Assembly (NCBI GenBank): GCA_965203035.1
Contig: OZ241858.1
Coordinates: 2,604,838 to 2,668,837 of the forward strand
Direction of reading: 5' to 3'
Source of the DNA: Candidatus Spongiisocius sp.
Lineage (GTDB): Bacteria > Actinomycetota > Acidimicrobiia > Spongiisociales > Spongiisociaceae
Length of the DNA stretch: 64,000 nucleotides
Part shown: positions 1 through 33,296 of the stretch, piece by piece
How the letters are laid out: every line of letters starts with the position of its first letter
Numbering within the stretch: the first letter of the stretch is position 1
The notes under the pieces: generated by a model
Database searches by the model: none
What the model saw: the letters and a program-made list of their open reading frames with translations, nothing else
What the model was told of the DNA's origin: nothing
Translations under genes and position numbers: made by a program

Positions 1-384
1 AGGCAACTCCCGGTAGGAGTTCAACTCCGAGGCGAGGTGGGCGAACACCTCCTCGTGGGTGAGGGCCAGCACGAGGTCGGCGCCGCGGCGATCCTCGAAC
101 TTGACCATGATCCCCTCTACGTCGTCCCACCGGCCGGTCTTCTTCCACAGCTCCGCCGGATGGACCACGGGCGCCAGGAACTCCTGGCCGCCGATGGCGT
201 TCATCTCCTCCCGGATGATGTCGGATACCTTCGTGGCGACCCGCATTCCGAGCGGGAGCATCGAATAGGAGCCGGCCATGAGCTGGCGGATGAAACCGCC
301 CCGGACCAGCAGGCGGTGGCTGGCGGCAACCGCATCCGCCGGATCGTCGCGGAGGGTGGGAATGAACGTCCGTGACCAGCGCAC
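1..384 (-). CDS. proS: proline--tRNA ligase, N-terminal 128 codons (gene runs off the left edge of the window)
   Basis: Absent from the ORF track because there is no stop in the window. Reverse-strand translation from GTG at 384 gives VRWSRTFIPTLRDDPADAVAASHRLLVRGGFIRQLMAGSYSMLPLGMRVATKVSDIIREEMNAIGGQEF..., a class II ProRS N-terminus. GGAG lies 6 nt upstream of the GTG. Confidence 0.8.
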   Translation of the reverse strand, partial: MRWSRTFIPTLRDDPADAVAASHRLLVRGGFIRQLMAGSYSMLPLGMRVATKVSDIIREEMNAIGGQEFLAPVVHPAELWKKTGRWDDVEGIMVKFEDRRGADLVLALTHEEVFAHLASELNSYRELP

Positions 385-9034: not shown

Positions 9035-9082
9035 GGTCTGCCCGGGGAACGAATGGCGGGGGGCCATTACCCCGAACAGACC
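9035..9082. terminator. nested GC-rich hairpin between convergent genes (probable bidirectional terminator)
   Basis: The sequence ggtctg cccgggg aacg aatggc ggggg gccatt a ccccg aa cagacc forms nested inverted repeats. It sits 22 nt after the phosphotriesterase-like stop and 1 nt before the tsf stop. Confidence 0.5.
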
Positions 9083-9083
9083 A

Positions 9084-9704
9084 CTAGGCCTCCTGCTCGC
9101 CGACTGCGAGGCGAGCGAACCGCCGGACGCCGATGTTCTCGCCCATCGAGGCGGCCAGCTCGGTCACCATGTCCCCGACCTTGCCCTCGTACTGATCGGT
9201 CCTGATGTACTCCTGCTCGTAGAGCACATTGTCCTTGTAGAAGGACTTGATCCGACCCTCCACGATCCGCTCGACGATCCGCTCCGGCTTGCCCGAGGCT
9301 ACGGCCTCCCTGGCAATCATCTCCTTCTCCCGGTCGACCAGCTCGCCCGGCACATCCTCGGTCCGCACCCACCTGGGCTGGGCGGCGGCGATGTGCATCG
9401 CCACGTCGCGGGCCATCTTCTGGAACCGGTCGCTCTTCGCGACGAAGTCGGTCTCAGATGCCAGCTCCACGATCACCCCGACGGTCGGATAACCGGAGGG
9501 CTGGTGTACGTAGAAGCCGACGGTGCCCTCGTTGGCGTCCCGTCCGGCCCGCTTCTTGGCATCGGCCAGGCCTTTCTCCCGGAGCAGGTCCTTCGCGCTG
9601 TCCATGTCCCCGTCGCAGTCCACCAGGGCTCTCTTGGCGTCCATCATGCCGACCCCGGTGGCCTTGCGCAGAGCCTGTACGTCCTTGGCTGTGAACTGTG
9701 GCAT
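9084..9704 (-). CDS. tsf: translation elongation factor Ts (short form)
   Basis: 206 aa with the N-terminal UBA-like LRKATGVGMMDAKRAL motif. Sits downstream of rpsB. Confidence 0.95.
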   Translation of the reverse strand: MPQFTAKDVQALRKATGVGMMDAKRALVDCDGDMDSAKDLLREKGLADAKKRAGRDANEGTVGFYVHQPSGYPTVGVIVELASETDFVAKSDRFQKMARDVAMHIAAAQPRWVRTEDVPGELVDREKEMIAREAVASGKPERIVERIVEGRIKSFYKDNVLYEQEYIRTDQYEGKVGDMVTELAASMGENIGVRRFARLAVGEQEA

Positions 9705-9778
9705 CTTTGCTCGTCCTTCGATTCAGGTTCTTGTTGGTGGTTCGTGGCTTGGTGTCTGTGCGGTCCGGAGCTACAGCG

Positions 9779-10510
9779 CTAGCTGTCGTCGCCGTCCTCC
9801 TCGGACTTGCCCTCGGCGGCGGCCAGGGCCTTCTCATTCCCGGCGACGCAGGCGTCGGCGATCGCCGAGGCGATGAGGGAAGCCGATCGGATGGCGTCGT
9901 CGTTCCCGGGAATGATGAAATCGATGTCGTCGGGGTTGCAGTTGGAGTCGACCAGGGCGATCACGGGAATGTCCAAACGCACCGCTTCCCGCACCGCGAT
10001 GTGTTCGGTGTTCAGATCGACCACGAACACGGCCGAAGGGGGTCCGCTCATGTCCGCCACGCCGCCCAGAGTCCTCAGGAGATGGGCGTACTCGCGGCGC
10101 AGGCGGAGGCGCTCCTTCTTCGGCAGCTGTTCCATGTCGCCCGAGGTCTCCATGGCCGCCAACTCCTTCATGTAGAAGATGCGCTGGTTGATAGTCTTGA
10201 AGTTGGTGAGCATGCCACCCAGCCAGCGGAAGCTGACGTACGGCATGTCGACCCGCTGGGCGGATTCCTCGATGGCGGAACGGGCCTGTTTCTTGGTGCC
10301 CACGAACAGAACGGCGCCGCCCTCGGCGACCAGATCCCGGACGAAGGCGTGGGCCCTCTGGACCTCCTCCAGCGTCCGGCGCAGGTCGATGATGTGGATC
10401 CCGTTGCGCTCTCCGAAGATGTACGGGGCCATCTTGGGGTTCCAGCGCCGGGTCTGGTGGCCGAAATGAACTCCGGCTTCGAGTAGCTGCTTCATCGTGA
10501 CGGCAGACAA
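9779..10510 (-). CDS. rpsB: 30S ribosomal protein S2
   Basis: 243 aa beginning [19 protein letters not shown]. Confidence 0.95.
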
Positions 10511-12835: not shown

Positions 12836-14116
12836 TCACGGGCCGAGGGCGGTGAGCGGTAGGACCAGGACCCCGTCGTCGCGGCGGTATCCGTATCCCA
12901 CCGCGGTGATCACTACCAGATTGGCGGGCGATCCGATATGGCGGGCGTCGACGACATCGCGCAGTTTGAGGAGAGACTTGGCCGCGGCCTCGATGGCATC
13001 CTCTCCGCCCAGCTTCACTTCGACCGCGATCCAAGCTCCATCACCTCGCTCGACGATCACGTCGATCTCGAGTCCGTTGCTGTCACGGTAATGGGCCAGG
13101 TGGCCGCGGCCGGCCTCTGCGTAGATCCGCAAGTCGCGCACGACCAGCGACTCGAACAGGAAACCGAAGGAGGACAGATCCTTCCGCAACCTGGCAGGAT
13201 TCGCATCCAACGCAGCCACCGCCAGCGAGGGATCCGCCAGATGGCGCTTCGGCATCCGGCGGAGACGGGCGCGAGACCGCAGCGCCACCGACCAGGCAGG
13301 CACATCCTCTACCACGAACAGGCGCTTCAATGAGTCCAGATAAGCGCCCACCGTGCGGGCATCCATCTGCTTGTCACCCGCTGTGTCACTGGCGAGGGTT
13401 CGCGCCGACGCCTCGGTTGCCACGTTCCGGGCCAGAGACCGCAGGAGGCGGGTCACCCCGATCGGGTCTCGAGCCGGCCCTCCCAGCTGGGCGATGTCTG
13501 TCCGGCACACCTCTTGGAGATACGACCTGGCGTAGTCCTGCGCGACAGTCAGTTCCATCCCCACGCAGGCGGGCCATCCGCCGCGGCACGTTGCCTCGAC
13601 CACGTCTCCCAGGTCGGGATCCGGCCGGGAAACGAACACCGGGTCGGGCAGGAACAGGTCGCTCATCGACACCTGGCCCGACGCCAGGCCCGTCTCGTAG
13701 AGCGACATAGGCCGCATCTGGATTCTCATGATGCGGCCGGTTCCGGTATGACGGGTCAAGTCATCAGCCGGCGTCGCCGAGCCGGTCAGGATGAACCGTC
13801 CCGGCCTGCGGCCGTCGTCCCCGGCTGCTCTCACCTGGTTCCAGATTTCGGGCGCAAGCTGCCATTCGTCCAGCAGTCGCGGCTCGGGGCCGTCCAGCAG
13901 TCCGGCGGGATCGACCTGGGCTGCCAGTCGAGCGTCCGGACTCGACCCGAACATCACCTCGCTGCGAGAGTGCTGCCGCCCCGTGGAGGTCTTCCCGCAC
14001 GCCCGCGGCCCCTCCAGCACCACTGCGGGCATGGCCGCCAGCCCGGCCGTCACCCGGGCATCCACGACCCTGGGCAGGTATGGATCGCGTGTTTGGTCGT
14101 CTGCCAAGAGGGTCAT
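12836..14116 (-). CDS. AAA+ ATPase of the COG1373 / AAA_14 + DUF4143 type (paralogue A)
   Basis: 426 aa with Walker A GPRACGKTS and Walker B-like RLLDEWQ. Clear paralogue of 27171..28442: a 64-aa stretch aligned by eye is 48/64 identical. Confidence 0.85.
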   Translation of the reverse strand: MTLLADDQTRDPYLPRVVDARVTAGLAAMPAVVLEGPRACGKTSTGRQHSRSEVMFGSSPDARLAAQVDPAGLLDGPEPRLLDEWQLAPEIWNQVRAAGDDGRRPGRFILTGSATPADDLTRHTGTGRIMRIQMRPMSLYETGLASGQVSMSDLFLPDPVFVSRPDPDLGDVVEATCRGGWPACVGMELTVAQDYARSYLQEVCRTDIAQLGGPARDPIGVTRLLRSLARNVATEASARTLASDTAGDKQMDARTVGAYLDSLKRLFVVEDVPAWSVALRSRARLRRMPKRHLADPSLAVAALDANPARLRKDLSSFGFLFESLVVRDLRIYAEAGRGHLAHYRDSNGLEIDVIVERGDGAWIAVEVKLGGEDAIEAAAKSLLKLRDVVDARHIGSPANLVVITAVGYGYRRDDGVLVLPLTALGP

Positions 14117-20533: not shown

Positions 20534-20890
20534 TGGTGGAGGTGCGGGGAATCGAACCCCGGTCCGTCGGTACTTCGGTGGCGGCGTCTCCGAGCGCAGC
20601 CGATGGCGAGCCTTCAGGCGGCCGGACTCCATCGGCGAGTGACCGTCCGCCCTACACCCGGATTGATCTCGATTCCCCGGTCCGGGCATCCCGGAGAGCC
20701 CATCCTGCTAAGCGACGCCCACTCCGAAGGGGGCAGGAACCCCTCCGGGGGACGGGCTACCTTTCTCTAGGCAGCCAGTGCAAGGTTTGGCTTGGCACTT
20801 ATGGTTGTTACCGGCTATTTAGCGAGGACTCCGGTGACCTCGGCTCGCTTCCGACACCTCTACTACCGACGTCGAAACCTGTTCACCCCC
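20534..20890 (-). ncRNA. ssrA: tmRNA (transfer-messenger RNA)
   Basis: The reverse strand starts GGGGGTGAACAGGTTTCGACG and ends GGACCGGGGTTCGATTCCCCGCACCTCCACCA. The internal tag frame is GCCAAGCCAAACCTTGCACTGGCTGCCTAG (20767..20796), encoding AKPNLALAA*. smpB lies 1 kb away. Confidence 0.95.
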
Positions 20891-21934: not shown

Positions 21935-22414
21935 TCACCCTGATCGGCGCCGGTCTGACATGGCTCGGCGGGCCTCCCGCTCCATGTCGCGGGCCTTCAA
22001 CTTCTCCCGCTTGTCGTAGCGGCGGGACCCTCGGCCGACCCCGATCAGCACCTTGACCCGCCCGTTCTTCCAGTACATCCTGACCGGCACGATGGTGAGG
22101 CGCTGTTCCTGAACGCGCCGGTTGATCCGCTCGATCTCCCGGCTGTGGAGGAGCAGCTTGCGTTCACGCTTGGCTTCGTGGCCACCGTGACGGGCCATCT
22201 CGTAGGGAGCGATGTGCATCCCCACCAGCCACATCTCGCCGCGGCGTACCAGGCCGTAGGCCTCTCGCAGCTGGACCTGGCCCGCCCGCAGGCTCTTCAC
22301 CTCGGAGCCGGTCAGCACGATGCCGGCCTCGTACTCCTCCTCGAACACGTAGTCGAACCGCGCCCGGCGGTTGGAGGCGATGCGCGATCCCGGATCCTTC
22401 TTCTTCGGATTCAC
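21935..22414 (-). CDS. smpB: SsrA-binding protein
   Basis: 159 aa containing NRRARFDYVFEEEYEAGIVLTGSEVKSLR. Confidence 0.95.
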   Translation of the reverse strand: MNPKKKDPGSRIASNRRARFDYVFEEEYEAGIVLTGSEVKSLRAGQVQLREAYGLVRRGEMWLVGMHIAPYEMARHGGHEAKRERKLLLHSREIERINRRVQEQRLTIVPVRMYWKNGRVKVLIGVGRGSRRYDKREKLKARDMEREARRAMSDRRRSG

Positions 22415-25269: not shown

Positions 25270-26428
25270 CTACTCAAAGGGTTTAGAGGATGCGCGAACC
25301 CCTGCGTCCCCTCGATCCTGACGCTCCCGATTGGCCCGGCGCCAGTGCAGGTAGGACTCGGTGAGTCTCTGCAGCGCACCGTCCAGCACTCCCTGGACAT
25401 TGCCGATCTCGAGACCGGTGCGAAGGTCCTTCACCTGCTGGTAGGGCTGGAGCACGTAGGATCGGATCTGGCGCCCCCACGCCGCCTCGGTCTGCTCCCC
25501 GCGGATCTGATCCAACTCCTTTTGCTGGCGAACCCGGGCCAACTCGGCCAGCTTCGCCTTGAGGAGGCCCATGGCCCTGGCCCGGTTCTGGATCTGGGAC
25601 CGTTCCGCCTGGCATGCCACCACGATGCCCGTCGGCAGATGGGTGAGCCGGACCGCCGAGTCGGTGGTGTTCACGTGCTGCCCGCCGGCGCCCTGGGAGC
25701 GGTAGGTGTCGATCCGGAGGTCGTCCGGGCTGATCTCAACCGCTGCGTCCTCCACCAGCGGCACCACGTCCACCCCGGCGAATGAGGTGTGGCGTCGGGC
25801 GTTCGAGTCGAACGGGGATATGCGAACCAGGCGGTGGACGCCACGCTCGGCCTCCAGGACCGCATACGCATGCTCACCCTCGACAGTCAGGGTCGCCGAC
25901 TTGATGCCGGCCTCCTCGCCCGACTGGAGGTCGTCGATCTCATGTTGCAGACCGAGGTCGGTCAGGTACCGGGCGTACATCCGGACCATCATCTCCGCCC
26001 AGTCCTGCGCGTCCACGCCCCCCGCGCCGGCATGCACGCTCAGGATGGCGGCATGGTCGTCGTACTCGCCGAAGTAGAGGGACTCCTCCTCGAGAACACC
26101 GATGCGTCGCTCGGTGGCGGCAAGATCGCGCGACACCTCCTCCAGGGTCGCCGAGTCGCCTTCCTCCCTTGCCATCTCGACCAGGATGTCGGCGTCCTCA
26201 AGGTCGTTCTCCATGGATTCGACCCGGTTGACCAGGCGTTCGATGCGGCCCAGCCGGCGGGTCAGGCGGGTGGCCCGATCAGGGTCGTCCCAGAGGTCGG
26301 GAAGGGCGACCTGCTCTCTCAGCTCGACCAGCTCGCCGAGCTTGGAATCGACATCAAAGGAACCTCCGGGCGTCCGATAGGCGGGCGCGCAGGTCGTCGA
26401 TCAGCGGGCGGGGGTCGGTGCGGTCCAT
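25270..26428 (-). CDS. prfB: peptide chain release factor 2 (requires programmed +1 frameshift)
   Basis: Frame 0 from ATG 26428 reads MDRTDPRPLIDDLRARLSDARRFL then TGA (26354-26356). The +1 frame continues DVDSKLGELVELREQVALPDLWDDP... into the 314-aa track ORF, which carries SPF and GGQ (SQGAGGQHVN). Confidence 0.9.
26353..26368 (-). promoter_or_regulatory. prfB autoregulatory +1 frameshift site
   Basis: The mRNA sense reads cGGAGGttcCTTTGAt. This is an internal Shine-Dalgarno-like GGAGG 3 nt before the slippery CUU followed by an in-frame UGA, as at the E. coli prfB site. Confidence 0.85.
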
Positions 26429-26632
26429 AACGGACGGGAGGTTAGCCCCGATTCTCCATGAACCCGGGATTCGCACCGTGAATGCTCGGGAGCGGGCCCC
26501 GGCCGGTGTCCGGGGAACATCGAGGATCGGGGCGAGCGGGCCGACTGCGCAACCCTTGCGCCGCCGATCCGGGCCCGGCGAGGCGCGAAATACAGCCGCA
26601 TTAGGAAACGCTTCCCGGATAGAATCCCGGGT

Positions 26633-26983
26633 ATGGGACGGCTACTCGCAGCGATCACCAGCAGGTGGCGCGCTGTTATCGCCGAATGGGCGGCCCGCCG
26701 CGAGGGGGCCCGCCATCTCCCCCGCGACATCTTCACGGCTGCCCGCCACATCGTGGGTCCCACCGGGTACGCCTGGTCCGGCACCTGGCAGCGACTCGAC
26801 GAGGACGGCGCAAACTACCTGCGATCCTTCGATCCGAAGATCCCCGCCAGCGTGTTCCTATCCCCCAGCGACCTGACCAGATCCATCCACCCCGTACCGC
26901 TCGGCGAACGCTGCATCGAGGACTGGGCGGAACCGGTACCACCGGACAACGCCTACGCCTCTCCGCCGGAGCAAACCGACTGA
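26633..26983 (+). CDS. hypothetical 116-aa protein
   Basis: An ORF with strongly G/C-biased third positions, which suggests it is coding. No motif recognised. First gene of the prfB-secA insert. Confidence 0.45.
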   Translation: MGRLLAAITSRWRAVIAEWAARREGARHLPRDIFTAARHIVGPTGYAWSGTWQRLDEDGANYLRSFDPKIPASVFLSPSDLTRSIHPVPLGERCIEDWAEPVPPDNAYASPPEQTD

Positions 26984-27060
26984 GAACGGTGGATAACGTC
27001 GTAGCTCATCAGTGACTCGATAAAGAACCGCGCCGCAAAGAGGCAACACCTGGTCCATAT

Positions 27061-27139
27061 TGTAGGATCATCCTGGTCTAGTACGTAGGATGAACTGTAT
27101 CCATCCTGTAGGATGAAAACCATCCATCCTGTAGGATGA
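27061..27139. promoter_or_regulatory. four phased TGTAGGATGA repeats (23-24 bp spacing), two embedded in CCATCCTGTAGGATGA dyads
   Basis: Copies at 27061 (tgtaggatca), 27084 (cgtaggatga), 27108 and 27130 (tgtaggatga). catcct-gt-aggatg dyads lie at 27102-27115 and 27125-27138. The spacer is AT-rich and ends just before the ATPase gene. Confidence 0.5.
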
Positions 27140-27170
27140 CATGACGGTTACAGGAGAACCCGGACGGAGA

Positions 27171-28442
27171 ATGAACGAGGAGCTCACACCCCACGGCTAC
27201 ATGCCGCGCCTCGTTGACCCCGAAGTCCGATCCATTCTCGAAGGGTCTCCCGGGCTGGTCATCGATGGTCCTAAGAGTTGCGGCAAGACATGGACAGCAT
27301 TACATCACGCCCGCAGTGCAGTGATGCTCGACCGTGACCTTGATGCGCGCCTTGCGGTTGCATTGAACCCGAGCCGCCTACTCGAGGGGCGCTACCCTCG
27401 CCTGCTGGACGAATGGCAGACGGCGCCGGACGTATGGAACGCCGTTCGGGCCGCTTGCGATGACGGAACCGGTCCCGGTCGGTTCATCCTGACCGGCTCG
27501 GCCGTACCGGCCGATGACACCACGAGGCACTCGGGCGCCGGTCGAATCCGACGGATACGGATGCGCCCCATGTCACTGCTGGAGTCCGGCGCGTCAACCG
27601 GCGCGGTCTCGTTCGAGGGGCTTCTCGAGGGCGCGGCATGCGACGCCGGCCGCCCCGACATGGACTTCGGTGGTGTCATCGACTCCGTTTGCCGCGGGGG
27701 CTGGCCTCGCCTCCTCGATCTCACCACGAACCAGACGCAGCAGGAACTCCGGGGGTACCTGGAAGAGTTATGCCGAACCGACATCTCCGCCGTCGATGCG
27801 ACGCCTCGTGATCCGGTCGGTGTCAGCCGCCTACTTGCCTCGTTGGCGCGAAATGTGGCCACCGAAGCATCCGTCTCGAAACTCGCAGCCGACACGGGTG
27901 GGGAGCGACCGGTCAACCGCACCACCGCCAAGGCCTACCTGCAGGCTCTCGAGCGGTTGTTCGTGGTGGAAGACCTGCCACGATGGCCCATCCACCTCCG
28001 CTCCCGCAAGCCACTCCGTGGCGCGCCCAAACGGCATCTGGTCGACCCGTCGCTGGCCGCGGCACGACTCAGGGCCACGCCAGACCGCTTGGCAACCGAA
28101 CTCAGCTACCTCGGGTTTCTGTTCGAGTCGCTGGTCGTGCGGGACCTGCGTATCTACTCGCAGGGCGCCGACTCGGTTGTTTGGCATTACCGGGACGCCG
28201 ACGATCTGGAAGTCGACGCCATAGTCGAGGCCGGTGACGGCCGCTGGATCGCCGTCGAAGTCAAACTGGGCGGTTCCCAACTCATCGATGCCGGCGCATC
28301 CTCCCTGCTGAGACTTCGTGCCAAGGCAGTCGCAGACGGACTCCAGCCACCTGCCAAGCTCTTGGTGGTCACAGCAACCGGTTACGGGTACGAACGGGCC
28401 GACGGAGTGGCGGTCGCACCTGTGACCGCGCTCGGTCCCTGA
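27171..28442 (+). CDS. AAA+ ATPase of the COG1373 / AAA_14 + DUF4143 type (paralogue B)
   Basis: Walker A GPKSCGKTW and RLLDEWQ. The start at 27171 (GGAGA then ATG; MNEELTPHGYMPRLVD) aligns with paralogue A. The track start at 27141 is in frame but overlaps the repeat array. Confidence 0.85.
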   Translation: MNEELTPHGYMPRLVDPEVRSILEGSPGLVIDGPKSCGKTWTALHHARSAVMLDRDLDARLAVALNPSRLLEGRYPRLLDEWQTAPDVWNAVRAACDDGTGPGRFILTGSAVPADDTTRHSGAGRIRRIRMRPMSLLESGASTGAVSFEGLLEGAACDAGRPDMDFGGVIDSVCRGGWPRLLDLTTNQTQQELRGYLEELCRTDISAVDATPRDPVGVSRLLASLARNVATEASVSKLAADTGGERPVNRTTAKAYLQALERLFVVEDLPRWPIHLRSRKPLRGAPKRHLVDPSLAAARLRATPDRLATELSYLGFLFESLVVRDLRIYSQGADSVVWHYRDADDLEVDAIVEAGDGRWIAVEVKLGGSQLIDAGASSLLRLRAKAVADGLQPPAKLLVVTATGYGYERADGVAVAPVTALGP

Positions 28443-28580
28443 CCAAGCCTCGGAGTCGATCTCGACGTACGGGCCTCCATCGGGATAGTGCCGAGGAAGA
28501 CGAGGACAGGTCGACCCGCGAAGCCTCGACCCTGGGTTTCGTTGCCCGGTATCGGGCTGACTGGGCGTTTCAGTACGCTC

Positions 28581-30581
28581 CTAGAGGCCGAGCGTCCACC
28601 AGTGCCTTCGGCGCCGGAGCCGATGGCCGATGAACCTCTCCAGGCTCGCTCTGTGCAACACCGTGCGGTCACCGCCGCTGGAGGCTTCATCGATGAGGGT
28701 GGAGGGGAGGTCGTCCCAACTGAAGCCGCGCCTGCCGAAGGCGTCCCGCTGTTCCCAGACGACGATGTTGTCGCCCTCGATGGTCCAGCCGTTGGGCGTC
28801 TCGCCTTCCCTCCTGGCATAGGCCGGCTCGCGGAGCAGAGATAGGACTCGCGACCTAACCCGGTCATAACGCTTGTCGGCGTAGGCCAGCCACTTCACCT
28901 CCCGGCACCATGGCGGAGCGATACCGCCGGACGCTCCGGCCAGGATCCCGCTGAGGGTGCTCGACGAGACGGCTAGCCAGTCCTCGGGAAGCGGGTCGTC
29001 TTCCAGCCGAGCCATCACGTCGACCAGGTAGCGGCGGTAGAGGTGACCCGTCATCTCCCCGCGTATCTTCCGGACGCGGCTTTGCAGACGCTGCCGGAGT
29101 TGCTCGTCGTGTGCGGGCAGGGCTGTCGTCGTGTAGACGGTCAGGCTTCTCTTCACGATCTCGTCGGGGAATGAATGGGGCTCTGCGTTCATCGACAGTA
29201 CGAACCCCGGGTACTCGGTCACCTGCGGCGGGTACTCGTCTTTGATCAGATCCTTGCCGTGGGTGTTGAAGGCCCTCCGCCCTATGTCGTCGAAGACCAC
29301 GGGGTGGCGCTTGTAGGCATGCTGCAGGCCGCGAAGCTTGGCCGTGGTGAAGCTTCTCTTCTCGACGGTGTGGGGGCGACCGAACATCGACGCCATAAGG
29401 GTGTCCACGAGGCTGGTCTTGCCGCAGTTGGACTTGCCGAAGATGATCGCGAAGGACGGGTATCGCACCACGTCGCTGTCGCGCAGGTGAGCAAGGGAGC
29501 GCAGATCGCAGATCAGGGGTGAGAAGTACAGCCAGGCCATGAAGGTGAAGTAGTCCCGCTGGAGCATCGGCACATCGCCCTCGAAGGCGCCCTCGTAGTT
29601 GCCGAAGAATTGGAGCACCAGCCGGGAGTCGTTCTCCACCGAGGCGCGGTCCCAGTCCAGGGAGAACTTCTCATCCGACAGCACGGCCGTGCGGTTCACC
29701 CGGTCTATCGACAGGAAACGGCTGGCGGCCTCGTCGGTTGACTTGACGAGACGTATGCGGCTTAGCTCACGCTTGATCTTGGGCGTGATCCGCTGCCTTC
29801 CGCCGCGCAACGGCGGTAGCGCGGCTGACAGGCGAGGTCTCAGCACGCTCGCCACCTTCTCGATCCGCTCCACCTGCGCCGGCGCGGAGACTTCGGCGTC
29901 GGCGGGTACGATCGGCTCGATGACCACGGTCGTGGAGTCGTCCGACAGCACCGGCGCCTGGGGTACCTCGATCTCGGTGCGGACGATCCGCTGCTCGGGC
30001 AGCGCTATCTCGTCGGAACCCGAGTCGCGGATCGTGTCGAACATGCGGCCGTAGTGATGCCATGCCTGCTCGTCGTCATCGAACACGACCAGTGTCTCGG
30101 GCTGCTGTCCCCCGAAGGCCCGCTCGGAGAGGTTGGCGGATCCGACGATCACACGCGTCCGGTCGCCGCCGGCCAGCAGGAACAACTTGGCGTGGGCAAC
30201 CGAGTTGCGCAGCACGCGGAAGGTTGCCTGCCCCGCGGTCACCTTCGCGAGGATGCGATGGTGCCTCTCGTCCTTCAGACCCATGATCGCTGTGCGCGTC
30301 CCATCGGTGGCGACCTTCTGGAAGGCGAGCACGTCGACCATGTTCCCGAGCGTCGCCTCGGACCCGAAGACGCATTCGAACCTCGCGAAGGAGAAGTCGT
30401 CCAACATCTTGACGATTGCTCCGGCGCTGGCCGAATAGGTCAGGACTCTGAGGCTCTCGAAACCCTCGAAGAGGGTCCAGTCGAACTTCTCCTCCTCCAG
30501 ATACCTGGCTCTGACAACCCGGAGCCCGGCGCCGTCATCCAACCCAAGCGTCGGCGTCGGCGAAGATTCCAACTTCGGCAC
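28581..30581 (-). CDS. PLD/HKD-family nuclease domain fused to a P-loop (SF3/AAA-like) NTPase; unassigned, candidate defence effector
   Basis: 666 aa. Motifs are VAHAKLFLLAGGDRTRVIVGSANLS (aa 128-152), Walker A AIIFGKSNCGKTSLV (aa 378-392), Walker B HPVVFDD (aa 426-432) and FVLSMN (aa 460-465). Confidence 0.8.
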   Translation of the reverse strand: MPKLESSPTPTLGLDDGAGLRVVRARYLEEEKFDWTLFEGFESLRVLTYSASAGAIVKMLDDFSFARFECVFGSEATLGNMVDVLAFQKVATDGTRTAIMGLKDERHHRILAKVTAGQATFRVLRNSVAHAKLFLLAGGDRTRVIVGSANLSERAFGGQQPETLVVFDDDEQAWHHYGRMFDTIRDSGSDEIALPEQRIVRTEIEVPQAPVLSDDSTTVVIEPIVPADAEVSAPAQVERIEKVASVLRPRLSAALPPLRGGRQRITPKIKRELSRIRLVKSTDEAASRFLSIDRVNRTAVLSDEKFSLDWDRASVENDSRLVLQFFGNYEGAFEGDVPMLQRDYFTFMAWLYFSPLICDLRSLAHLRDSDVVRYPSFAIIFGKSNCGKTSLVDTLMASMFGRPHTVEKRSFTTAKLRGLQHAYKRHPVVFDDIGRRAFNTHGKDLIKDEYPPQVTEYPGFVLSMNAEPHSFPDEIVKRSLTVYTTTALPAHDEQLRQRLQSRVRKIRGEMTGHLYRRYLVDVMARLEDDPLPEDWLAVSSSTLSGILAGASGGIAPPWCREVKWLAYADKRYDRVRSRVLSLLREPAYARREGETPNGWTIEGDNIVVWEQRDAFGRRGFSWDDLPSTLIDEASSGGDRTVLHRASLERFIGHRLRRRRHWWTLGL

Positions 30582-30624
30582 CGGCCGGAGTCCTTTCCAT
30601 TCGGGGGATTCGGACGATATCAGT

Positions 30625-30639
30625 GGCGTGTGACACGCC
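30625..30639. terminator. short hairpin ggcgtg-tga-cacgcc just after the secA stop
   Basis: Perfect 6-bp inverted repeat 5 nt downstream of the secA stop codon. It is weak and has no clear U-tract. Confidence 0.3.
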
Positions 30640-30644
30640 GATTC

Positions 30645-33296
30645 CTATCGGGCGCGGGCGGCCGCCATGCAGTCAGGGGTCTTGGAGCACCGCTTGGCCT
30701 TGAGGCCCGACCCGCACGGACACGGGGCGTTGCGCCCCACCTTGGCCGACTTGGCCTGCTTGGGCCGCCGCGGTCCCGAACCCGCAGTGACGTTGAGCCG
30801 GGGTCGGGCCCGGCGCCGGGCCTCCGCCACCTCGACCCGGTACAGGTAGCGAGCGGTGTCACGCTTCACGGAGTCCACCAGGTAGCTGAACATCTCGTAG
30901 CCCTCGCGGCGGTACTCGGTCAGGGGATCCCGCTGTCCCATCGCCCTCAGGCCGATCCCGGCCCGCAGGTAGTCCATCTCCGACAGGTGATCCCGCCACT
31001 TGTTGTCGATGATCGATAGGGCGAGACCCTGCTCGATGCGGCGCATCACCTCGGGAGTCAGCTCGCTCTCCCGCTCCTCGAAGCGGCGAACCGCGTCATC
31101 GGCAACCACCTCGACCACCTCGTCGACAGACCTGGCCGCAGCCGCCAGGTCACCGGGTGACAGATCGGACGAGTACAGGACCTGGAGTTCCCTGAGCAAT
31201 CCGTCCCAGTCCCATTCCGACGGGGGCAGGTCCTCGGGCAGGCCGTCCCTGACGGTGGCCTCGACCGACTCCTCCACCCACTCCACCACCAGGTCCCGGC
31301 TCTTCCGGGTGCGAAGGATGCTGTCCCGCCACTCGTAGATCACCTCGCGCTGGCGGTTCATCACCTCGTCGTACTTGAGGACGTTCTTCCGGATCTCGAA
31401 GTTCTGCGACTCGACCTGCGACTGGGCCCGCTCCACGGCCTTGGTGACCATCTTCGCCTCGATCGGGACCTCGTCCGGCATCCTGAGGCGCTCCATGATC
31501 GTGCTGACCCGATCGCTGGCGAACCTCCTCATCAGGTCATCGCCCAGGGAGAGGTAGAAGCGTGACTCCCCCGGATCGCCCTGACGCCCCGACCGTCCCC
31601 GGAGCTGGTTGTCGATCCGGCGGCTCTCGTGGCGCTCGGTCCCGAGCACGTAGAGACCCCCGGCCTCCAGCACCTGCCGGCGGGTCTCCTCGGTCCCGGC
31701 CTGATTGGTCTCGAGCAGTTCCCGGTATTCCCTCTCCCAGGAAGGAGTGTCCGGCGGCAGGTCGGGGCGCTTCCGCATGGCGGCGCGCGCCAAGCCCTCC
31801 GGGTTGCCGCCCAACTGGATGTCGACGCCGCGGCCGGCCATGTTGGTGGCCACCGTGACCGCCCCGGGCCGGCCGGCCTGGGCGATGATCTCGGCCTCCC
31901 GGGCGTGGTGCTTGGCGTTCAGGACCTCATGGGATATTCCCCGCCTCGCCAGCAATCTGGACACCCGTTCGGACTTCTCGATCGAGACCGTGCCCACCAG
32001 CACCGGCTGGCCCGCCCGGTGGCGCTCCTCGATGTCCTCGGCCAGCGCCAGGTACTTGGCGTCCTCGGTCTTGTAGATCACATCGGGCTGGTCGACCCTC
32101 GCAACCGAGACGTGGGTGGGAACCTCCATGACCTCCAACCCGTAGATCTGCGAGAACTCGGAGGCCTCGGTCATGGCGGTGCCGGTCATCCCCGCCAGCT
32201 TGCCGTAGAGGCGGAAGTAGTTCTGGAGGGTGATCGCCGCCAGGGTCTGGTTCTCCTCCTTGATCCGGACTCCCTCCTTGGCCTCGATGGCCTGGTGGAG
32301 ACCTTCCGAATAGCGGCGGCCTTCGAGAACCCGCCCGGTGAACTCGTCGACGATCATCACCTGGCCCTGCGAGACCAGGTACTCGACGTCGCGGTTGTAG
32401 AGCGCCTTGGCCCGGAGCGCCTGCTCGAGATGGTGGACGAAGTCGACCGCGGCATGGTCGTACATGTTCTCCACGCCCAGCATCCGCTCGACCTGGGCAA
32501 CACCGTCCTCGGTGGTCAGCACCTGCCGCTTGCCGTAGTCGACCTCGTAGTGGGCCCCTTCCCGGAGACCCCGCACCAGCCGGGCGAACTCCCGGTACCA
32601 GCGGGCGTTGTCGCCCACCTGCCCGGAGATGATGAGGGGGGTGCGGGCCTCGTCCACCAGGATCGAGTCCACCTCATCCACGATGCCGAAGCTATGGCCG
32701 CGCTGTACCCGGAGATGCATGGACATGGCCATGTTGTCGCGCAGGTAGTCGAATCCGAACTCGTTGTTCGTGCCGTAGGTGACGTCCGCCTCGTAGGCGG
32801 GCTTGCGCGAGGCCGGATCGTCGCCCGCCTGGATGAGGCCCACGGAGAGGCCGAGCATCCGGTAGATGCCGCCCATCCACTCCGCATCTCGGGAAGCCAG
32901 GTAGTCGTTGACGGTCACGACATGCACCCCGGCCCCGGCGAGGGCGTTCAGGTAGACCGGCATGGTGGAGACGAGCGTCTTGCCCTCGCCGGTCCGCATC
33001 TCGGCGATCATGCCACGGTGGAGAGCTCCGGCGCCGATCACCTGGACGTCGTAGTGACGCTGGCCGAGCGTCCGCTTGGCGGCCTCCCGGACCGTGGCGA
33101 AGGCTTCCACCTCCAGATCGTCCAAGGATTCTCCGGATTCGAGACGCTCCCGGAACTCGACGGTCTTGCCGGCGAGAGCGGCGTCTTCGAGTTCCTCCAA
33201 CTGCGGCTCCATCCGGTTGACACGCTCCGCCAGGGCTTGGAGGGTCTTCAGGTTCTTGGACTCACCGGCGCGCAGCACCTTGCTGAGCAGCGACAT
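30645..33296 (-). CDS. secA: preprotein translocase ATPase SecA
   Basis: 883 aa with MRTGEGKTL Walker A and the DEVDSILVDEARTPLIISG motif. C-terminal zinc finger CPCGSGLKAKRC. Confidence 0.97.
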   Translation of the reverse strand: MSLLSKVLRAGESKNLKTLQALAERVNRMEPQLEELEDAALAGKTVEFRERLESGESLDDLEVEAFATVREAAKRTLGQRHYDVQVIGAGALHRGMIAEMRTGEGKTLVSTMPVYLNALAGAGVHVVTVNDYLASRDAEWMGGIYRMLGLSVGLIQAGDDPASRKPAYEADVTYGTNNEFGFDYLRDNMAMSMHLRVQRGHSFGIVDEVDSILVDEARTPLIISGQVGDNARWYREFARLVRGLREGAHYEVDYGKRQVLTTEDGVAQVERMLGVENMYDHAAVDFVHHLEQALRAKALYNRDVEYLVSQGQVMIVDEFTGRVLEGRRYSEGLHQAIEAKEGVRIKEENQTLAAITLQNYFRLYGKLAGMTGTAMTEASEFSQIYGLEVMEVPTHVSVARVDQPDVIYKTEDAKYLALAEDIEERHRAGQPVLVGTVSIEKSERVSRLLARRGISHEVLNAKHHAREAEIIAQAGRPGAVTVATNMAGRGVDIQLGGNPEGLARAAMRKRPDLPPDTPSWEREYRELLETNQAGTEETRRQVLEAGGLYVLGTERHESRRIDNQLRGRSGRQGDPGESRFYLSLGDDLMRRFASDRVSTIMERLRMPDEVPIEAKMVTKAVERAQSQVESQNFEIRKNVLKYDEVMNRQREVIYEWRDSILRTRKSRDLVVEWVEESVEATVRDGLPEDLPPSEWDWDGLLRELQVLYSSDLSPGDLAAAARSVDEVVEVVADDAVRRFEERESELTPEVMRRIEQGLALSIIDNKWRDHLSEMDYLRAGIGLRAMGQRDPLTEYRREGYEMFSYLVDSVKRDTARYLYRVEVAEARRRARPRLNVTAGSGPRRPKQAKSAKVGRNAPCPCGSGLKAKRCSKTPDCMAAARAR

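Follow-up and report, generated by a model that had tools for sequence, protein, structure and literature searches.

What does a protein that joins a nuclease motif to a nucleotide-binding P-loop do, and why does its gene lie directly behind secA? This question is raised by a 64,000-nucleotide stretch of Candidatus Spongiisocius sp. (contig OZ241858.1; hereafter the window), in which one open reading frame (ORF) fuses a phospholipase D (PLD)-type nuclease to an ATPase of the AAA+ class. An earlier note on this DNA had proposed an anti-phage or anti-plasmid effector of unrecognised type, sitting in a non-core insert. Our analysis revealed that the two domains are genuine, that their catalytic residues are invariant across a widely scattered family, and that the gene was inserted into an otherwise conserved chromosomal block. 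We lean, without great assurance, towards reading it as a stand-alone, nucleoside triphosphate (NTP)-dependent, restriction-like DNA endonuclease that provides horizontally transferred accessory defence against phage or plasmid DNA. The ORF and every motif quoted in the earlier note were found by script at the residues and nucleotides given there (Table 1), and an AAGGA Shine-Dalgarno-like motif lies 9 nt 5' of the start codon of the fusion gene.

A single-HKD nuclease fused to an AAA+ ATPase

At its N-terminus the protein carries a PLD nuclease domain with a single HKD motif, of the BfiI/NgoAVII/SauUSI type, in agreement with the earlier assignment to the Nuc/BfiI/NgoFVII-type enzymes. Residues 104-183 just reach the gathering threshold of Pfam PLDc_2, with 27.6 bits where 27 are required, and the nuclease domain gives a weak match to RE_NgoFVII; in an alignment of 66 diverse full-length homologues, with identities down to about 21%, PLDc_2 was matched by 65 sequences and RE_NgoFVII by 59 (best E 5.6e-10). 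Foldseek comparison of this domain with the PDB retrieved R.NgoAVII (4rct, 1.5e-5), SauUSI (7clg, 4.8e-5), and BfiI (2c1l), with Tdp1 and phosphatidylserine synthase as weak further matches, and the domain was modelled by AlphaFold2 (AF2) with a predicted local distance difference test score (pLDDT) mostly above 85. The HKD motif contains H130, K132, G147, S148, N150, and S152. The canonical Asp four residues after the HKD Lys is replaced by Ala137, and E162, located 10 residues past the motif and outside its span, is invariant instead. The spacing of H130, K132, N150, and E162 is almost equal to that of what we take to be the corresponding BfiI residues, H105, K107, N125, and E136.

The C-terminal half, residues 290-666, is predicted with high confidence to fold as an AAA+ ATPase. 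An AF2 model of the full protein, built from the 66-sequence alignment, had a mean pLDDT of 87.9, and a separate model of residues 290-666 reached a pLDDT of 95.4 with a predicted template modelling score of 0.92; both are monomer models. A collar, consisting of a beta-hairpin and two long helices, packs onto the ATPase, the compact core of which displays the full set of motifs typical of superfamily 3 (SF3) helicases (Walker A, Walker B, sensor-1 Asn, and a trailing Arg), with median spacings in the homologues of 44 residues from A to B, 35 from B to C, and 13 from C to the Arg. Between Walker B and sensor 1, K447 is nearly invariant (at least 90%). The best PDB fold match of this half was Cch of the staphylococcal cassette chromosome mec (5dgk, 7e-7), followed by the large T antigens of simian virus 40 (SV40) and JC virus, poxvirus D5/E5, papillomavirus E1, and NrS-1; Cch itself is SF6/MCM-like and not an SF3 protein. 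Among predicted viral structures (BFVD), the matches were phage COG3378/D5-type primase-helicases, DUF927 proteins, and polyomavirus helicases. These fold matches and the invariant motif-C Asn bear out the earlier description of an SF3-helicase-like P-loop distinct from the SF1/SF2 type, and no Pfam model of an SF2 motor (DEAD, ResIII, or Helicase_C) matched the 666-residue protein. Fold comparison alone was informative here, as sequence searches of PDB chains with the single protein or with a profile of the 66 sequences returned only noise. No fold match to a pseudobarrel (B3-like) DNA-binding domain was detected in residues 290-666.

The earlier note had recognised nothing in the linker and the C-terminal region. 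This holds for residues 191-289, a low-confidence segment that has the highest column entropy of all regions and varies in length from 90 to 117 residues among homologues, but not for the rest, which the model resolves into the collar, a helical lid, and a small alpha/beta domain. The lid and the alpha/beta domain together are the least conserved of the folded regions. Cch and Rep have a winged helix at the C-terminus, and by analogy the alpha/beta domain (residues 561-666) is a candidate DNA-recognition domain.

Conservation and size of the family

Twelve residues are invariant in all 66 homologues: H130, K132, S148, N150, S152, E162, G382, G387, K388, N465, R478, and D534; D432 is conserved in at least 90% of them. 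Because both catalytic sets remain invariant down to about 21% identity, the nuclease and ATPase activities have been kept under joint selection. Conservation is highest in the PLD and ATPase cores and lowest in the linker and the C-terminal domain; variability of the C-terminal domain would be expected if this domain determined specificity.

A word-indexed search returned at least 1187 family proteins at 90% clustering, of which the best 120 were all full-length with 66-93% identity, and an exhaustive search of sequences clustered at 50% gave 807 representatives, 183 of which had E<=1e-30. The architecture is constant across the family, and full-length members mostly measure 650-780 residues. 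An HTH_17 domain (excisionase/MerR-like) precedes the PLD domain in nine of the 66 homologues, which form a sub-branch of about 750-780 residues that includes L021 and L022 (P0158). The precomputed annotation of all 120 listed homologues, including the closest at 93% identity (P0001), contains PF27394 (Aq_aa27), so membership of the Spongiisocius protein in this Pfam family is, by proxy of these annotated relatives, nearly certain. The name Aq_aa27 looks like a locus tag, presumably aq_aa27 of Aquifex aeolicus. In source databases, members are called 'phospholipase D-like domain-containing protein', 'NgoFVII family restriction endonuclease', or 'restriction endonuclease PLD domain-containing protein'. 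Our literature searches found no description of the family, and aq_aa27 gave only spurious matches. The label of an unrecognised type is therefore apt as regards published work, but not as regards databases, where a Pfam entry and NCBI names already exist.

Insertion between secA and prfB

The gap between secA and prfB, measured to the post-frameshift part of prfB, spans 194-753 bp in 27 of 30 related metagenomic loci, in all of which the two genes share one strand; in the window it spans 4.4 kb, which identifies positions 26429-30644 as an insertion. Synteny over the full region (85-95% DNA identity) was found in only one genome of the collections, an Acidimicrobiia metagenome-assembled genome (MAG; L003). 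The genes around the insert are core genes, all on the minus strand: secA, prfB, ftsE, ftsX, an M23 peptidase gene, smpB, and the transfer-messenger RNA (tmRNA) gene. The description of a non-core insert beside a COG1373 ATPase was thus confirmed by the tight secA-prfB junctions of relatives and by the Pfam assignment of the neighbour.

DNA similarity between this context (A) and a second one (B, described below) is confined to the ORF and about 50-65 bp upstream of it. Within this upstream stretch lies a conserved 26-nt element, common to context A (the window and L003) and context B (L001, L002, L004, L020, and L008), beyond which, in the 5' direction, the sequences of the two contexts are unrelated. 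The element may serve as a promoter or operator; a search for a sigma-70-like promoter was negative. The recurrence of the ORF together with this upstream stretch in both contexts shows that the gene brings regulatory DNA of its own and that its place behind secA is incidental. The earlier note had stressed that the gene lies directly downstream of secA. As geometry this is correct, with 64 nt between the two on the same strand, but the arrangement recurs in a single sister genome. An operon role with secA was considered and rejected, as other secA-prfB loci lack the gene and the gene has its own conserved upstream element.

The insert is not flanked by any convincing repeats, direct or inverted, and no tRNA gene lies at the insertion site, the sole RNA gene being that for tmRNA at 20.5 kb. 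Other material occupies the secA-prfB junction elsewhere: an apolipoprotein N-acyltransferase gene with a DDE transposase fragment in L055 (6140-10000), and a DUF7847 gene in L034 (4440-5750). Insertions may land at this junction repeatedly.

Several further features of this region were recorded. A 116-residue ORF at 26633-26983 (plus strand), between prfB and the ATPase neighbour, has no Pfam match; its DNA is conserved only in L003 (85%), and it is not part of the cassette in other contexts. The prfB gene contains a programmed +1 frameshift (ATG at 26428, Shine-Dalgarno-like GGAGG at 26363-26367, CTT TGA T at 26353-26359), and a 314-residue ORF at 25270-26214 represents only its post-frameshift part. 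The conserved secA-prfB-ftsE-ftsX-M23-smpB-ssrA block is closed by smpB (21935-22414, minus strand) and by the tmRNA gene ssrA (20534-20890, minus strand; tag peptide AKPNLALAA).

Table 1. Features of the fusion gene and its surroundings, in window coordinates
Feature	Residues	Position (nt)	Strand	Basis or remark
PLD nuclease/AAA+ ATPase fusion gene		28581..30581	-	ORF list and translation; 666 codons, GTG start
Disordered N-terminus	1-33		-	AF2 model
PLD (HKD) nuclease domain	34-190	30012..30482	-	Pfam, Foldseek, AF2 model
HKD motif VAHAKLFLLAGGDRTRVIVGSANLS	128-152	30126-30200	-	Exact string location by script
Variable low-confidence linker	191-289	29715..30011	-	pLDDT 48-82
Collar (290-370) and AAA+ core (371-490)	290-490	29112..29714	-	Model, Foldseek
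Walker A AIIFGKSNCGKTSLV	378-392	29406-29450	-	Exact string location by script
Walker B HPVVFDD	426-432	29286-29306	-	Exact string location by script
FVLSMN, sensor-1/motif-C Asn465	460-465	29187-29204	-	Exact string location by script
Candidate arginine finger R478	478	29148-29150	-	Invariance across 66 sequences
Helical lid (491-560) and small variable C-terminal alpha/beta domain (561-666)	491-666	28584..29111	-	Predicted secondary structure
Conserved upstream element GTGTCACACGCCACTGATATCGTCCG		30611..30636	-	26 nt; begins 8 nt past secA stop; upstream-region alignment
AAA_14 + DUF4143 (COG1373) ATPase gene		27141..28442	+	Convergent; Pfam, PADLOC
secA		30645-33296	-	Five SecA Pfam domains; ends 64 nt 5' of fusion start codon
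prfB (release factor 2)		25270-26428	-	Start and frameshift located
Insertion		26429..30644		4.2 kb; fusion gene, DUF4143 gene, and about 0.7 kb of other sequence without assignment

Distribution and genomic contexts of homologues

The closest homologues occur in sponge-associated Acidimicrobiia (Ca. Spongiisociaceae), and more distant ones in Dehalococcoidia/Chloroflexi and Rubrobacter. Within one bacterial family, the gene occupies at least three contexts: A, between secA and prfB; B, beside molybdopterin-oxidoreductase and CoA-transferase genes; and C, beside SIMPL and VWA genes. Rather than being conserved at one locus across the clade, a pattern that the earlier note had named as speaking against its proposal, homologues are patchily distributed and their contexts vary. 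Copies also occur on plasmids of Acetobacter and Komagataeibacter, among toxin-antitoxin modules; the Acetobacter copy lies in an accessory toxin-antitoxin region, about 3.7 kb from a mobF relaxase gene and on the opposite strand. On the Thermus oshimai plasmid pTHEOS02 (L028, 7887-8999), an ORF of about 370 residues covers only the ATPase half (query residues 314-509), lacks the PLD domain, and adjoins a transposase gene; it is probably a decayed copy. Neither 50,697 phage records nor PHROGs contained a match to the protein, and a phage origin was therefore dropped.

Defence-type genes were observed near several homologues. One locus combines a cyclic oligonucleotide-based antiphage signalling system (CBASS; SMODS and patatin) with GmrSD and HEPN genes and an HTH and M78 peptidase pair immediately upstream, and another combines CBASS with insertion sequence elements. 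A convergent SLFN_AlbA_2 gene was found at one locus, HepT/MNT toxin-antitoxin genes elsewhere, and a cluster of SNF2, HATPase_c_3, and methyltransferase genes near one further homologue, with an N6_N4_Mtase gene about 7.7 kb downstream. No methyltransferase gene is adjacent to the fusion gene, either in the window insert or in the homologue loci inspected one by one, and the family has no conserved methyltransferase partner. In this small sample, the association with defence islands is suggestive. In L017, from a genome of about 5.7 Mb, a same-strand HTH_3 and Peptidase_M78 (ImmA/IrrE-type) pair at 9039-9976 immediately precedes the homologue. Pairs of this kind control some defence and prophage genes, and the one in the L017 lineage hints at regulated expression there.

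The convergent DUF4143 gene

The other assigned gene of the insert encodes a DUF4143 protein that matches the PADLOC candidate PDC-S01 at 1.4e-65. Convergent orthologues (78-90% identity) accompany the fusion gene in the window and six further loci, distributed over context A (window, L003), context B (L001, L004, L008, L020), and context C (L006), and their identities track those of the fusion protein (77-93%). This distribution indicates that the two genes moved together within the clade, although one to three unrelated ORFs separate them in some loci. The pairing is absent from L005, L007, L012, the Chloroflexi loci, the plasmids, and the distant homologues, and L019 has only a paralogue of 36% identity at a distance of 5.5 kb. 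COG1373 ATPases are multi-copy in the genome, as illustrated by a second AAA_14/DUF4143-type gene at 12839-14107 (minus strand) that is 56% identical to the neighbour. The absence of pairing outside the clade, together with this paralogue, argues that the DUF4143 gene is a clade-specific companion or an adjacent independent defence gene and not a defining partner. The co-occurrence with COG1373 genes that the earlier note had suggested scoring therefore holds within one Acidimicrobiia clade but fails beyond it. A count of six independent DUF4143-linked contexts was rejected, because a scan of the flanks placed many of them in the same molybdopterin-oxidoreductase/CoA-transferase neighbourhood, which leaves about three. 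A literature search on DUF4143 and defence was uninformative.

Just 5' of the DUF4143 start, at 27057-27137 (plus strand), a near-palindrome ATCCTGTAGGAT, embedded in CATCCTGTAGGATG, is present in two exact copies and one degenerate copy, spaced by about 23 and 46 bp; L003, which is syntenic, has one exact copy, and the other 111 loci have none. The copies resemble operator sites.

Comparison with known systems

Among characterised enzymes, SauUSI (Type IV, ATP-dependent; PDB 7clg) shares with the fusion protein a single polypeptide, an N-terminal single-HKD PLD domain, an NTPase motor, C-terminal DNA recognition (for the fusion protein, a candidate domain), and the lack of a cognate methyltransferase. 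The coupling of a PLD nuclease to an ATPase in SauUSI, and its modular logic, have been described (PMC12191111). The two differ in that SauUSI uses an SF2 helicase motor and an SRA-like sensor, whereas the fusion protein has a Rep/Cch/SF3-like AAA+ module that is expected to form rings, and they have no sequence similarity outside the PLD domain. BfiI, NgoAVII, and NgoFVII (2c1l, 4rct) possess the same type of nuclease domain, but they carry their own C-terminal B3-like pseudobarrel and are served by methyltransferases, neither of which accompanies the fusion protein. NgoAVII and CglI provide a restriction precedent for combining PLD and NTPase functions on separate subunits; their required SF2-type ATPase subunit has no counterpart beside the fusion gene. 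What sets the fusion protein apart from these PLD and NTPase precedents is the class of motor.

The layout of collar, ATPase, and C-terminal domain is shared with Cch and the Rep proteins of Staphylococcus aureus pathogenicity islands (SaPI), self-loading initiator-helicases of SF6/SF3, and with the viral SF3 helicases large T, E1, D5, and P4-type primase-helicases, and the three-tier plan of Cch and SaPI Rep, with a C-terminal winged-helix DNA-binding domain, has been documented (PMC9371898). Those helicases, however, have primase or origin-binding N-termini and belong to replication modules, whereas the fusion protein has a nuclease N-terminus and is encoded by a solitary gene. The END nucleases (END-PaCF1) are likewise single-gene systems with no methyltransferase, a BfiI-like PLD N-terminal domain, and an exchangeable C-terminal module; in them this module is an inactive EndoIII/OGG-like sensor without an NTPase, where the fusion protein has an ATPase module that is expected to form a ring. 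BfiI-like PLD N-terminal domains combined with variable C-terminal sensors have been validated as single-gene defences, and the END type was missed by DefenseFinder and PADLOC until tested (PMC12191111). The PLD components of Mokosh (MkoB/MkoC), DISARM (DrmC), and Azaca (ZacB) share the HKD nuclease motif, but they belong to systems of several genes that include SF1/SF2 helicases and further partners, and no such partner is adjacent to the fusion gene. PADLOC v2.0.0 matches were limited to residues 124-172 (ZacB 1.6e-6, DrmC 0.005; E values from 1.6e-6 to 0.025), and NCBIfam DrmC scored 19.6 bits against a cut-off of 133, far below threshold. The earlier statement that the protein belongs to no named defence system accordingly withstood the PADLOC check, in which only the HKD motif was matched.

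Proposed mechanism and alternative explanations

In single-HKD nucleases such as Nuc and BfiI, two PLD domains contribute to each active site, which is metal-independent and operates through a phospho-histidine intermediate, and in AAA+ ATPases of the Cch/SF3 type, ATP is hydrolysed at subunit interfaces in rings. If the fusion protein is a restriction-like endonuclease, its collar, AAA+ core, lid, and C-terminal domain would assemble into a ring like those of the self-loading Rep/Cch/SF3 helicases, and this ring would bind or translocate on DNA with ATP at the subunit interfaces (K388, D431/D432, N465, and R478), while the variable C-terminal domain would add DNA recognition. The PLD domains would pair two by two, each pair forming one active site (H130, K132, N150, and E162) that would cut DNA by the BfiI/Nuc route. 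Hydrolysis at interfaces fits an invariant R478 acting in trans, and ring assembly on DNA would thus also pair the nuclease domains, which may couple ATP hydrolysis to cleavage. Because no methyltransferase gene accompanies the fusion gene, self DNA would have to be spared by what the enzyme recognises, which might be a modified base, a foreign DNA structure, or a replication intermediate. A more ambitious version, which we hold only tentatively and would not rely on, is that the family represents an undescribed class of immune nuclease in which a self-loading ring helicase of the replication-initiator type, taken over from mobile elements, serves as both sensor and motor, loading at foreign origins, forks, or sites read by the C-terminal domain, so that assembly with three PLD pairs licenses metal-independent cleavage.

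Several observations weigh against an NTP-dependent defence nuclease. The usual role of helicases with the Cch/SF3 fold is in the replication of mobile elements. The similarity to them is limited, with template modelling scores of 0.23-0.38 and identities of 10-15%, so the resemblance is one of fold and layout and family membership is unproven; the best Pfam match of the P-loop region, SF3 RNA_helicase, is sub-threshold (18 bits against a cut-off of 21.5) and reached E<=0.01 in only seven of the 66 homologues. The model of residues 290-666 predicts no beta-hairpin (motif B') between Walker B and sensor 1, which makes true translocation uncertain. No PADLOC model matches beyond the HKD motif, and the family is experimentally uncharacterised. 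When 148 flanking ORFs from 13 MAG loci were scanned together, they yielded mostly metabolic families, few defence matches (those to Type II methyltransferase models apparently coming from one ORF, as the output was aggregated per model), and two integrases, so enrichment in defence islands is anecdotal and not quantified.

The replication-protein affinity just mentioned leads to a competing explanation, in which the protein is a Rep-like replication or mobilisation factor of a small mobile element, its PLD domain nicking through a covalent phospho-histidine and its Cch/SF3-like ring unwinding the DNA from that nick, in the manner of HUH-SF3 Rep proteins. The closest structural matches to the ATPase half are indeed, without exception, replication initiator-helicases of mobile elements or viruses with the same three-tier plan, the gene has moved from locus to locus and is also plasmid-borne, and the HTH_17 domain of the nine longer homologues is of the excisionase type. 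The unit common to different contexts, however, is just the ORF and its short upstream stretch, without flanking repeats and without an integrase or other element gene that is regularly found beside it; the family is absent from the phage records, the Acetobacter plasmid copy sits in an accessory region away from and opposite to mobF, and the PLD domain is closest to restriction nucleases. We consider this explanation quite unlikely. That the defence would instead be a two-gene system, in which the PLD-ATPase and the convergent DUF4143 ATPase might divide the roles of sensor and effector, appears rather unlikely. It draws on the recurrence of the convergent pair in seven loci of three contexts and on the strong PADLOC match of the DUF4143 protein, but the pairing is confined to one Acidimicrobiia clade, unrelated ORFs can intervene, COG1373 genes are multi-copy, and the convergent orientation excludes co-transcription.

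A housekeeping role, whether in host DNA repair, chromosome maintenance, or phospholipid metabolism, might be read from the same-strand position shortly after secA, from the metabolic flanks of many homologues, and from the weak Tdp1 and phosphatidylserine synthase matches. We regard it as very improbable, given that linkage to secA is limited to the window and one sister genome and 27 of 30 secA-prfB loci are empty, that the gene is patchy across phyla and present on plasmids, that it brings its own upstream element, and that nuclease-type PLD families score best.

Implications

For annotation, a defined two-module architecture can replace the vague labels 'phospholipase D-like' and 'NgoFVII family restriction endonuclease'. 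Because PLD nucleases need no metal ion and form a covalent intermediate, an NTP-gated member could serve as an enzyme tool. If the restriction-like reading is correct, the family would offer a tractable model of how ATPase ring assembly gates a dimerisation-dependent nuclease. In the more ambitious version, it would add a third motor class to NTP-dependent restriction, a Rep/Cch/SF3-type AAA+ ring beside the SF2 translocases and the McrB GTPase. On the restriction-like reading, it would also constitute a compact single-gene defence missed by current detectors, spread over hundreds of clusters in at least four bacterial phyla and on plasmids, in which a helicase module that starts the replication of mobile elements would have been recruited against mobile elements themselves.

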